Source: Octopus vulgaris (taxonomy: Eukaryota). Taken from it: a stretch of DNA of 64,000 nt. Shown here piece by piece: positions 13,629 to 58,999 of this stretch. Both the position numbers and the translations under genes were made by a program. The stretch is from assembly GCA_951406725.2 (NCBI GenBank), contig OX597828.1:26784001-26848000 (forward strand), read 5' to 3'. Numbering within the stretch: the stretch's first letter is position 1; every line of letters starts with the position of its first letter. Under the pieces are notes generated by a model. The model saw nothing but the letters and a program-made list of their open reading frames with translations. It ran no database searches and had not been told where the DNA came from.

Positions 13629-13649
13629 CATATATATATATATATATAT

Positions 13650-14032
13650 ATCGTGACGCATATTTGCCATTTGAATATGGCTAACCCCTAAGGGTGGATG
13701 CTACTGTAGTTTGTAGCCCCAGAAAGATATCTCCTCCAGCTGGCTATAGACACACTATCTGTGCCCTATCGGTATTTGTGAAGGGAAGTCATCCTTCCCG
13801 TCTTCAACTTATGATACACACGGGCTCGAATTTCAAGGTGTTTACCTATCGTCAGCGTGTGACAATCATAGTTGTCGATGAGAATTCAGTTTCCCTCACA
13901 AATACATATACTTTTTCCAGTGTCGATTGACACTGATATTGAAAAAGTGAAATCAAACAATGATAAATCTCAGAGCTAGTTATAAACAGTAGCGATAACA
14001 CATCGTGACGTATATTTGCCATTTGAATATGG
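13650..14032 (-). mobile_element. Element H4: 352-bp monomer plus 31-bp terminal direct repeat, containing a hammerhead motif (retrozyme / Penelope pLTR-like)
   Basis: ATCGTGACG(C/T)ATATTTGCCATTTGAATATGG occurs at 13650-13680 and 14002-14032. Internal hairpins are present and the element is flanked by (TA)n and (TG)n. Confidence 0.75.
13817..13861 (-). ncRNA. Type-I hammerhead ribozyme motif
   Basis: CACACG-CUGACGA-uAGGUaaacACCUu-GAAA-UUCGAG-CC-CGUGUG. It has a perfect 6-bp stem I and an intact CUGANGA/GAAA core; stem III is a decayed (A)CUCGAG(U) palindrome. Confidence 0.7.
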
Positions 14033-14419
14033 TGTGTGTGTGTGCATGTCTTTGTATGTGTGCCTCCTCTCACCACTGCTTGACAACTTGTGTTCATGTC
14101 CCTGTAACTTAGTACTTCAATAAATGAGACCTATAGAATAAGTTCCAGCTGTAAAAAAAAAATGTTCTGGCATTGATTCATTGAACTAAAATTCTGCAAG
14201 GTAGTGCCCCAGCATGGCCAGTCTAATGACTGCAACAAGTAAATACTAAAAGACATATATACATCATCATCGGCATTGTTGAGTTTTAACTTCAACTTTT
14301 CTATACTTTCATGTGTCAAATGGAATTGTTTGAGGCAAATTTTCTCTGGCCAGATGCTCTACCTGCCACCAAGTCTCACCTGTTTCCACGTAGGGTAATA
14401 TTTCATCTTGGCTGAAGAT

Positions 14420-15430
14420 GTTTTCACTGAAGACTTGGAGAAGGCATTTGACAGAGTGCCACATGCACCAATTTGGTGGTCACTAAGGAAACTAGGCGTA
14501 GATGTATGGTTTGTGATGACCATACAAACTGCATACAAAGATGCCATAAGTAAAGTGAGAGTCAACAAGGATATCATTGATGAGTCTAGCATGAGGCTAG
14601 GAGTCCATCAAAGTTCAGTTCTCTGTTATTCATCATAGTCTTACGGTTCATCACAGAGAAGGTTAACACTGGTTATTCATGTGAACTCCTTTATGCTGAT
14701 CTAGTTCTTGTAGCTGAATCTGTTGAGCAATTAGAGAGGAAATTCTAGGTTTGGAAGTTAAATCTAATACTGAGAGATCTTAAGCTAAACTTAGGAAAGG
14801 TGAAGGTTTTAGTCGATAGAACAGAAGACGGGACCCTGATATCCTTAGGAAAAAAGGAGTAGATATAAACTTCATATGCTGTGCTGATTGTAAACTATGG
14901 ATACCCAAGAAGTGTTGTAGAATCCCAAGCAGACTAACAGAGGATGTAAGATTCATATAGGATAGATGCTCTGGAGTAGTTTGTACTATGATTACACCAC
15001 AAACAGTTTCTCTTAAATGCTTGGAAAGCCCACTGGAAGTAGCTGATATATTTTAATATTTTACCTATGAGGGGTTTGTTCTGAAAGTATAACCACCAGG
15101 ATAAGAATGGATTGCAGAAAGTTCAGGGAGCTATTACTGTTGCTGGCTACAAAGGTCTTAGAGTGAAGGGAAGATTGTATGATGCTTGTGTTAGAACTGT
15201 GATGCTGCAGGGCAGTGAGACTTCGGGCTCGAATGCAGAAGACTTGAGAAGATTGGAAAGAGATGAATTGAGCATGCTGCATTGGATGTGCAGTGTAAAA
15301 ATTCTTGACTGACACAATATCTTTTGAGAGAAAAACTAGGCCTTAAAGGATTCAGAGGTAATGGGCAAGATTGAAAACTGTGCTGGTACAGACATGTGAT
15401 GCATATGGATGAGGACCGCTGTATTAAAAC
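14420..15430 (+). pseudogene. Decayed reverse transcriptase of an RTE-like non-LTR retrotransposon
   Basis: DLEKAFDRVP...IWWSLRKLGV, GVHQSSVL, LLYAD-LVL (one Asp missing) and KGRLYDACVR..ML.GSET, interrupted by stops and frameshifts. Confidence 0.92.
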
Positions 15431-40823: not shown

Positions 40824-41440
40824 CATAGAGCTGTGGCCATGCTGGGGCACTGCCTTAAAAGATTTAGTTGAACAAATTGACATATTTTTCACATCTAGTA
40901 CTTATTTCATCAGTCTTTTATGTACATCTGCCAAGCCGTTGGGATGCAAACAAACTAACATTGGTTGTTGAGCAATGATGGTGGTGAGGGGCAAACACAA
41001 AAATACACACATACACATAGAGCTGTGACCATGCTGTGGCCATGCTGGGGCACTGCCTTAAAAGATTTAGTTGAACAAATTGACCCCCCCCTATGACATT
41101 TTTCATGTCTAGCACTTATTTCATCAGTCTTTTATGTACATCTGCCAAGCCATTGGGATGCAAACAAACTAACACTGGTTGTTGAGCAATGATGGTGGTG
41201 AGGGACAAACACAAAAATACACACATACACATAGAGCTGTGGCCATGCTGGGGCACTGCCTTAAAAGATTTAGTTGAACAAATTGACCCCCCCCCCATGA
41301 CATATTTTTCATGTCTAGTACTTATTTCATCAGTCTTTTATGTACATCTGCCAAGCCGTTGGGATGCAAACAAACTAACACTGGTTGTTGAGCAATGATG
41401 GTGGTGAGGGGACAAACACAAAAATATACACATACACATA
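40824..41440. repeat. Tandem triplication of a ~200-bp diverged SINE A segment
   Basis: CATAGAGCTGTG... restarts at 40824, 41016 and 41230. Confidence 0.9.
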
Positions 41441-49552: not shown

Positions 49553-50037
49553 CATCATCATCGTTTAACGTCCACTTTCCATGCTGGCATGGGTTGGACA
49601 GTTTGACTGAGGACTGGCAAGCCAGAAGGCTGCACCAGGCTCCAATCTAATCTGGCAATGTTTCTACAGCTGGATGCCCTTCCTTATGTCAACCACTCCG
49701 AGAGTGTAGTAGGTGCTTTTTATGTGTCACTGGCATGAGGGCCAGTCAGGCAGTACTGGCATTGACTACGCTTGAGTGGTGCTTTTCATGTGCCACCGGC
49801 ATGGGAGTGAGTCAGGCGGCGCTGGCAACGACCATGCTTGAATGGTGCATTTTATATGCTACCAGTATGAGAGGCAGTACTGGCAACAGCCATGCTTAAA
49901 TGGTGCCTTTTACATGTTGGTGACACAGGACCAGTCAGGTGCATTGGCATTGATAACGCTCAGACATTTCTTTTTATGTTCCACCAGCATGAGAACCAGT
50001 CGAGCGGCACTGGCATCAACCATGCTTGAATGGTGCC
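49553..50037 (-). mobile_element. RTE-like 3' UTR (family C) with an expanded hairpin-unit array (~5-6 units)
   Basis: Recurrent CCAGTCAGGC..CTGGCA...TGGTGC..TTT units after the (CAT)n tail and the GGATGCCCTTCC motif. Confidence 0.82.
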
Positions 50038-55575: not shown

Positions 55576-55581
<6 letters not shown>

Positions 55582-55746
55582 CACTAAGAAGGTTTAGAAA
55601 CCACCTGAAGAATGTCTAAGATGTGCTGACACGAAACGATCGTAGTGGTTATTCATTTGTTAAATTTTAATTTATATAAATTATTTTATGTATTGGCTTA
55701 AGTCTTTCTTTCTTTGATTTGCATAATAGTGGTTTTGTCTCTAATT

Positions 55747-55750
<4 letters not shown>
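55576..55750 (+). mobile_element. Element H5 (~175 bp, (TA)n on both sides) with hammerhead
   Basis: Short AT-rich insert between two long (TA)n tracts. Confidence 0.7.
55599..55650 (+). ncRNA. Type-I hammerhead ribozyme with palindromic stem III
   Basis: AACCAC-CUGAAGA-aUGUC..GACAc-GAA-ACGAUCGU-A-GUGGUU: 6-bp stem I, intact core, perfect palindrome ACGAUCGU and a GUA cleavage triplet. Confidence 0.82.
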
Positions 55751-58678: not shown

Positions 58679-58999
58679 TCCGTGCCGGTGGCACGTAAAA
58701 TGCACCATCCAATTGTGGCCGTTGCCAGCCTCGTCTGGCCCCGTGCCAGTGGCACGTAAAAAGCACCATCTGATCGTGGCCGTTTGCTGGCCTCGTCTGG
58801 CACCTGTGCAGGTGGCACGTAAAAAGCACCCACTACATTCACAGAGTGGTTGGCGTTAGGAAGGGCATCCAGCTGTAGAAACACTGCCAGATCAGACTGG
58901 GCCTGGCACAGCCTTCTGGTTTCCCAGACCCCAGTTGAACCGTCCAACCCATGCTAGCATGGAAAACGGACGTTAAATGATGATGATGATGATGATGAT
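58679..58999 (+). mobile_element. RTE-like 3' UTR (family C) with three hairpin units
   Basis: GTGCCGGTGGCAC-type units at 58682, 58743 and 58806, and a (TGA)n tail. Confidence 0.88.

Follow-up and report, generated by a model that had tools for sequence, protein, structure and literature searches.

The window analysed here is a stretch of 64,000 nucleotides from Octopus vulgaris (assembly GCA_951406725.2, contig OX597828.1, positions 26,784,001 to 26,848,000 of the forward strand). Between a (TA)n and a (TG)n run it contains a short insertion without tail and without inverted arm, whose RNA corresponds to the minus strand. Unit positions are numbered from 13650 along the plus strand, hence unit position 1 is the RNA's 3′ end. 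The following features were assigned:

13630..13649, no strand: (TA)n target, entered by the 3′ end of the insertion
13650..14032, minus: whole insertion, 383 bp or 1.09 units, 5′-truncated
13650..14001, minus (RNA strand): non-coding unit, 352 nt, 41% GC
13650..13653, minus: fixed 3′ end (site 1), putative reverse transcription start; 59 of 114 arms begin at unit 1-12
13665..13680, minus: predicted hairpin adjoining site 1, with a C-G/U-A change between subfamilies (columns 338/345)
13700..13713, minus: 5′ strands of two predicted helices, with partners at 13986-13993 and 13954-13958
13767..13910, minus: long interrupted stem capped by the hammerhead (outer arms 13767-13787 and 13890-13910)
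13817..13861, minus: type I hammerhead; cleavage site of the family between 13823 and 13822
13918..13935, minus: predicted hairpin with a compensatory A-U/U-A change between subfamilies
13956..14001, minus: optional tail sequence of other copies (43-46 nt); 46 of 114 arms begin at unit 295-314
13956-13960, minus: site 2, second putative reverse transcription start; most site-2 arms begin at unit 307-311
14002..14032, minus: partial second unit (31 nt of the next upstream unit), ending at a random truncation point

A preliminary description of this DNA was built on a 31-nt direct repeat with one mismatch (13650-13680 and 14002-14032, spacing 352), which is indeed present. It had been read as a defined terminal redundancy, with a host target-site duplication named as the refuting case. 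The repeat proved to be element sequence, and its outer limit at 14032 appears to be the random 5′ stop point of a cDNA, because the 5′ ends of other copies scatter over the whole unit. More than 1,000 dispersed copies and the position of the repeat inside the element rule out that the insert is single-copy with a host duplication or that the motif arose by chance. No target-site duplication was found at the window copy. The unit has no credible open reading frame, as had been stated before: the longest ATG frame has 56 codons, and this minus-strand frame was judged to be a chance occurrence.

The preliminary description had supposed a multi-copy, retrozyme-type family with tandem multimers, and a genome-wide search bore this out with both dispersed and tandem copies. 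One 24-mer near the 3′ end of the 352/353-nt family has 1,090 exact matches in the assembly, and copies 94-97% identical to the 383 bases in the window occur on more than 20 contigs among the best 40 of 3,137 candidates scored. Older subfamilies of the unit stand at 74-85% identity. The youngest subfamily has a 353-nt unit that is 88% identical to the window unit, 465 exact matches of its hammerhead motif and a divergence of 0.53% (198 of 37,457 sites in 54 loci). GC content is 41-43% across the 352/353-nt units and thus below 50%. A tree was built from 104 near-full copies (167 loci), with unsettled bootstrap, a midpoint root and the youngest subfamily absent. The copies formed a ladder in it, with end branches that become shorter: 4-9% for the old groups and about 1% for the group of the window copy. 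Tandem arms reach 1,804 nt (5.1 units), and one array has nine units; no LTR pair was seen in the copy structures of the family. Contigs from four runs guessed to be RNA cover the unit, these being assembled contigs in which strand, level, ends and circularity are unreadable. The youngest subfamily was traced from a variant contig over the hammerhead that is present in two of these four runs. Two pairs of loci (L209/L211 and L272/L277) are insertions of identical structure at different places on contig C1, the first pair also with matching flanks. They are probably segmental duplications or assembly duplicates, and one of each pair was left out of the counts.

The minus-strand hammerhead spans exactly 13861-13817, as had been proposed. 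Its stem I pairs 13861-13856 with 13822-13817, followed by the core CUGACGA (13855-13849), stem II (13847-13836) and GAAA (13834-13831). The window copy carries the changes U16.1C (13824), C15.2U (13830) and U7C (13851), and its stem II has a U.U at the base. The substitutions near the cleavage site are real, with 13824 and 13830 canonical in 42 of 42 other pieces, and an Rfam search of the window copy gave no match at E<=1. Changes at 15.1/16.1 are described as costing hammerheads at least tenfold activity (PMC3088659). Given this cost, and since U16.1C is private to the window copy, its ribozyme is probably inactive. An intact hammerhead, expected elsewhere in the family, was found by descriptor matches in young, middle and old subfamilies. 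It is complete, with CUGAUGA, a stem II of four or five pairs, GAAA and GUC or GUA, and its stem III consists of two pairs inside an 8-nt palindrome; short palindromic stems III have been described as working in dimers (PMC4209133, PMC7229834). The young form, with a G10.1-C11.1 pair, is a canonical type I hammerhead and reached 32.2 bits (E 6e-5) on Rfam RF00163, just below the gathering score of 34; L004 and L142 gave no listed match in the RF00163 search. Rfam miRNA matches were rejected as noise from inverted junctions and microsatellites. Among 42 pieces from loci picked regardless of ribozyme, 26 hammerheads were intact, 14 carried U4C and 2 were otherwise broken. With the same degenerate motif, the U4C core has 211 exact matches versus 355 for U4. 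On the tree U4C marks a middle period, during which a G-C pair of stem II became A-U, and was followed by reversion. U4C is reported to lower activity in vitro, yet to support a viroid in vivo (PMC3088659). It creates a CpG, and CpG decay restores the canonical core.

The window unit has a folding z of -5.3, matched by 0 of 100 shuffles, and the natural monomer from hammerhead to hammerhead folds with its ends together (z -6.8). The stem previously noted around the ribozyme has arms of 21 nt that are 81% complementary, and would hold both ends of a cleaved monomer together. Three hairpins had also been named, and all are present (13783-13799, 13861-13876 and 13918-13935). Only the third is supported by the family; the first two are not, because they overlap, and hence exclude, helices with compensatory changes. 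Two further helices (columns 9-16/308-315 and 44-48/302-306, with a C-G/U-A change in 12 and 9 rows) link the tail region with sequence 50-65 nt upstream of site 1. When the modelled unit is circular or in tandem, they span the junction between units and enclose the two fixed ends. Among 22 copies hand-picked from the subfamilies, pairing holds in 95% of cells and two-sided changes occur at 14 of 89 pairs, a number reached by 3 of 500 shuffles, with slid controls giving 2-6. The fold is thus kept across about 20% divergence, a figure to be read with the fold being partly derived from these same sequences and the covariation representing few independent events on a ladder-like tree. G-U intermediates agree with the minus strand as the RNA.

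The insertion footprint was counted in two sets. The older set comprised 66 distinct places from the first 100 of the 1,090 24-mer matches, with duplicates dropped, and the young set 54 of 56 places from the first 100 of the 465 motif matches (one duplicate dropped, one not fetched). Circularly permuted start points, which the preliminary description had anticipated for a circular template, were not seen: starts are fixed at two sites. Of 114 arms in the older set, 59 start at unit 1-12, 46 at 295-314 and 9 elsewhere (105/114 fixed); the 87 young arms start at site 1 in 47 cases, at site 2 in 29 and elsewhere in 11 (76/87 fixed). The two fixed 3′ ends lie 43-46 nt apart and the 5′ ends are scattered over the unit. 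Inverted second arms were found in 34 of 66 older and 23 of 54 young loci, and the tail was present at exactly one end in 33/34 and 23/23 of these insertions (56/57 together), a rule with p ~4e-16 against independent choice of sites. In the young subfamily, 64 of 74 fixed ends lie directly against TA repeats. A shift-tolerant script detected 12-14-nt target duplications in 6 of 66 loci, and the others lie mostly in microsatellites. In 25 of the 57 inverted insertions (26 before removal of L249, a tolerance artefact) neither arm lies within the other, and both arms were therefore primed separately in these; one arm does in the remaining 32. The features counted here are of the kinds described for insertions of Penelope-like elements (PLEs; PMC8557442, PMC3846280), and a tail "at one of the inverted pLTRs" is already in print in qualitative form (PMC3846280, PMC8557442). 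For a purified PLE that extends both strands in vitro, the tail has been described as the stretch between two internal start sites (PMC11167929). The link to Penelope made in the preliminary description thus stands, but there the circle and the Penelope pseudo-LTR had been posed as alternatives, and the data fit both at once.

Rare variants within single insertions give an indication of the template, and the repeats of one insertion look like copies made from a single sequence variant. At 107 loci of the 352-nt sets, rare letters were common to tandem repeats at 10 in 5,280 sites and to inverted arms at 21 in 9,435 sites, and sharing within an insertion was about 40 times that between loci. 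In the young set 21 rare variants occurred in every repeat, at 15 of 54 loci (19 at 14 loci without L320, which is really two separate pieces and contributes two of the 21); of the remaining ones, 4 were present in some repeats only and 103 in a single repeat. One private variant is confined, across the whole assembly, to the five units of its own insertion, one rare variant of L308 is present in all six units of both arms, and the separately primed arms of L318 have four rare variants in common. Diagnostic cells were concordant within loci in 208 of 210 cases (52 loci), where 89 discordant ones were expected. Since a new mutation starts in one unit, filling all units needs a monomer step. A cleaved linear monomer appears not to be the usual template, because 5′ ends show no pile-up at the cleavage site (4/99 at unit 168-178). 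This is the fair test; the 2/76 ends at 170-180 in the young set are biased, as the motif used to select those loci lies beyond this region. Indels at the cleavage site were seen in 0 of 106 crossing pieces, where background predicts about 0.7, so that this represents only an absence of excess. Linear RNA from the unit boundary combined with strand transfer was rejected, as there is no excess of ends near 353. We infer that a ligated circle read more than once is the best-fitting template, and the shared variants together with the one-site-per-end rule suggest one RNA that was primed twice.

Some insertions show a mixed picture. A second variant of L308 occupies ranks 1, 3 and 4 in one arm, where rank 2 is without it, and rank 1 but not rank 2 in the other arm; L283, L314 and L352 have variants common to some repeats only; and L352 and L082 mix alleles of different subfamilies. 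These patterns suggest that some events involved multimeric templates, template switches or conversion. Three private variants were searched for a parent locus in which variants divide at the cleavage site; none was found, and two of the three recur on other backgrounds. The nine-unit array L231 (1900-5050; G000:C2:14086400-14089550) is all U4C and has private alleles found nowhere else, with old terminal segments and near-identical inner units. It looks like a satellite that was born from one insertion and expanded at the DNA level. It was rejected as a master of dispersed copies, given that 9/9 matches of its private motif lie inside the array.

Taken together, we interpret the window insert, with a probability of roughly 0.7, as a dead truncated copy of a non-LTR retrozyme, likely moved in trans by an endonuclease-bearing PLE and likely from a monomeric circular RNA. 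The window copy is likely a dead member of an older subfamily, and in itself ordinary debris. That the family as a whole is a non-LTR retrozyme, and very likely a non-autonomous passenger of a PLE, is the part of this reading held with high confidence; that it is copied from a circle is probable. In such a scheme a locus with two hammerheads would be transcribed and double cleavage would release the 352/353-nt monomer, whose ends the long stem would hold until a host ligase closes it into a circle. The PLE protein might then bind the helices that span the unit junction and nick both strands of an AT-rich target. Reverse transcription would be primed at two internal sites on the same RNA, one per nick, and each cDNA would circle the template until it falls off; the two cDNAs would be joined via short microhomology, or one would be lost. 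The window copy would be a product with one arm, started at site 1 and broken off after 383 nt, and having a single, mutated hammerhead it would itself make no circle. More tentatively, and with the odds somewhat against it, one PLE complex may prime both nicks on one ligated circle, always one per fixed site, from which tails, inverted arms and tandem pseudo-LTRs would follow.

The template could also be a linear read-through multimer, carried by the same non-autonomous PLE partnership and copied with template jumps, in which case the hammerhead would be a passenger or have another job. We consider this unlikely, though hammerhead mutants of a PLE insert normally in vitro and the authors of that study work with a model of multi-copy mRNA (PMC11167929). 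The U4C lineage amplified despite its reported lower activity in vitro, and both the rank-matched variant in L308 and the partial sharing in L283, L314 and L352 are what such a template might leave. From a linear multimer, however, a mutation in one unit should keep its rank, whereas the private variants fill all repeats. A site-2 copy also lacks the 3′ strand of a covarying helix, and linear progeny would likely lose a unit per generation. In addition, the one long array examined (L231) left no dispersed copies of its private motif, and it is the youngest subfamily that has the most canonical hammerhead.

Two other explanations concern multimers and inverted arms. DNA-level events after insertion, such as unequal crossover and gene conversion, might produce both the multimers and the shared variants, and such an origin has been proposed for retrozyme arrays (bioRxiv 10.64898/2026.07.22.740005). 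L231 looks homogenised in this way, and conversion could account for the two-repeat cases and the four partial ones; as a general account it is very improbable, given many independent multimers in a subfamily diverged by only 0.5%, variants common to inverted arms, which crossover cannot produce, and 103 single-repeat variants that stand unconverted beside variants in 5/5 and 6/6 units. An inverted arm might instead be the product of self-priming (fold-back) or of an antisense template, an origin put forward for rotifer Penelope (PMC3846280), and this would explain shared variants without double priming. A few near-palindromic junctions (e.g. L239 and L306) and the insertions with one arm inside the other would fit. 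We regard it as improbable, since the arms of the other 25 do not contain each other and a second arm formed in this way would have no reason to stop at the other fixed site.

A search for GIY-YIG proteins gave 6,136 candidates, and among the 150 matches scored there are two intact PLE families with RT and GIY-YIG, of 775 and 781 amino acids, which we consider candidate movers. The 775-aa element (L131 895-3222 and L355) has a tandem unit of 4,270 bp with upstream reading frames. It is probably active now, because 76/76 scored copies are identical in protein over the query. It shares the layout of tail and inversion with the retrozyme insertions and carries, 139 nt ahead of the element end, a hammerhead-like motif in sense orientation whose core is of the U4C form; its named relatives are mostly from bivalves or bivalve symbiont bins. 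The 781-aa element (L093 2342-4687 and L104) has an upstream frame of 479 codons of no clear Pfam family and, like its relatives, a hammerhead-like motif that lies some 66 nt ahead of the end and has the U3-A8 core variant. In both elements the nuclease is preceded by a C-x4-C-x2-C linker, which has been described as a mark of Neptune and Nematis (PMC8557442); the likeness to these clades noted here is one of the linker. DNA similarity to the unit was found neither in the two intact families nor in 30 GIY-YIG loci of the 6,136 candidates, and among 404 flanks there was no shared flank marking a longer parent. A related copy beside the L107 ORF was rejected as a PLE part, being a separate older insertion, and PLE fragments adjoining some copies were set aside as partners, since they look nested.

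A second, unrelated hammerhead family with a unit of 476-481 nt appears to follow the same rule. It has two fixed ends about 122 nt apart (39 scored of 1,500 candidates), and thus a tail about three times longer, and forms arrays that reach about nine units. At 24 loci, 20 insertions were inverted: each end class is represented once in 15 of them, one end is damaged in 5, and a pair of like ends was seen in none, so that the one-site-per-end rule holds in 15/15 with both ends intact. At L358 (7707-8555; G000:C1:70535700-70537800) this family is fused to an arm of the young subfamily with a 3-nt microhomology, a single hint of machinery common to both families.

The retrozyme class is already known, and the octopus family is, as far as our literature search shows, a previously undescribed member: the search turned up neither an account of the family nor a counted one-site-per-end rule, while Repbase/Dfam or paper supplements may list it. 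Every retrozyme feature tested was found, namely one hammerhead per small, non-coding, self-pairing unit and duplications longer than 4 bp when present. Metazoan non-LTR retrozymes described by Cervera and de la Pena (2020, PMC7229834) likewise have a self-paired non-coding unit of about 350 nt with GC below 50%, tandem copies and one type I hammerhead per unit with a short palindromic stem III. In size the octopus unit resembles the mussel unit of 350-390 nt and the axolotl units of 330/350 nt, one of which has a U.U where stem II begins, in the same study. There, circles and cleavage were demonstrated, whereas the present family is described from genomic sequence; a PLE mover was proposed from co-occurrence, whereas the footprint of the present family points to a PLE directly. 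A recent preprint (bioRxiv 10.64898/2026.07.22.740005) comes to the same conclusion on kind, that retrozymes are non-autonomous PLE derivatives, for 35 species (31 vertebrates, 3 insects and 1 coral), arguing from distribution and pLTR similarity. No such similarity was found here among the PLE loci examined. The preprint also invokes local DNA amplification for tandems, whereas the young multimers described here look as if made during copying.

The PLE features tested were likewise found: partial 5′-truncated tandems, an inverted copy with a tail at one end, and AT-rich or microsatellite targets. The Poseidon PLE of Anolis carolinensis, PAc (Frangieh et al. 2024, PMC11167929), similarly has two internal starts that bound a tail downstream of a hammerhead, inserts into AT-rich targets with both strands extended and needs RNA beyond the start sites; its hammerhead is dispensable for insertion in vitro (PMC11167929). 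PAc differs in being autonomous and assayed on a linear template, with no strand difference in start site in vitro, and the article text reports no pairing rule between the two ends. Neptune, Naiad and Chlamys elements (Craig et al. 2021, PMC8557442) also show partial tandems, an inverted 5′-truncated copy, a (TA)n bias and a 30-40-bp tail, often at one end, and non-autonomous Chlamys elements such as MRC1 form multicopy head-to-tail copies. These generally resemble an autonomous family at the 3′ end, and Naiads are described as being without hammerheads (PMC8557442). The mover enzyme and the circle as template belong to a mechanism that both bioRxiv 10.64898/2026.07.22.740005 and PMC11167929 call unresolved. 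For this question the octopus family offers countable footprints, namely two fixed starts, the one-site-per-end rule and private variants that run round all units. One genome contains both a subfamily diverged by 0.5%, whose ribozyme is canonical, and candidate PLE proteins that are intact, and this makes the questions of mover and circle directly testable. If the double-primed circle is true, the insertions are an in vivo record of steps so far missing from the picture of Penelope transposition, and a pair of retrozyme and PLE that is apparently active to this day would allow reconstitution in a tube.

Other features of the window touch on the same element types. Adjoining the retrozyme insertion, at about 14400-14700 on the plus strand, lies a decayed reverse-transcriptase-like coding fragment that had no match to PLE proteins and that we take, by eye, to resemble an RTE-type LINE. 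A short insert at 55576-55749 (plus strand) sits between two (TA)n runs and has an AT-rich 3′ part; at approximately 55599-55653 (plus strand) it has a hammerhead-like motif with a CUGAAGA core, a palindromic stem III and a 6-pair stem I. It is probably the truncated end of another PLE-type family. Tandem repeats occur at 40878-41440 (period 214), 49712-49878 (period 66) and 58680-58830 (period 61).
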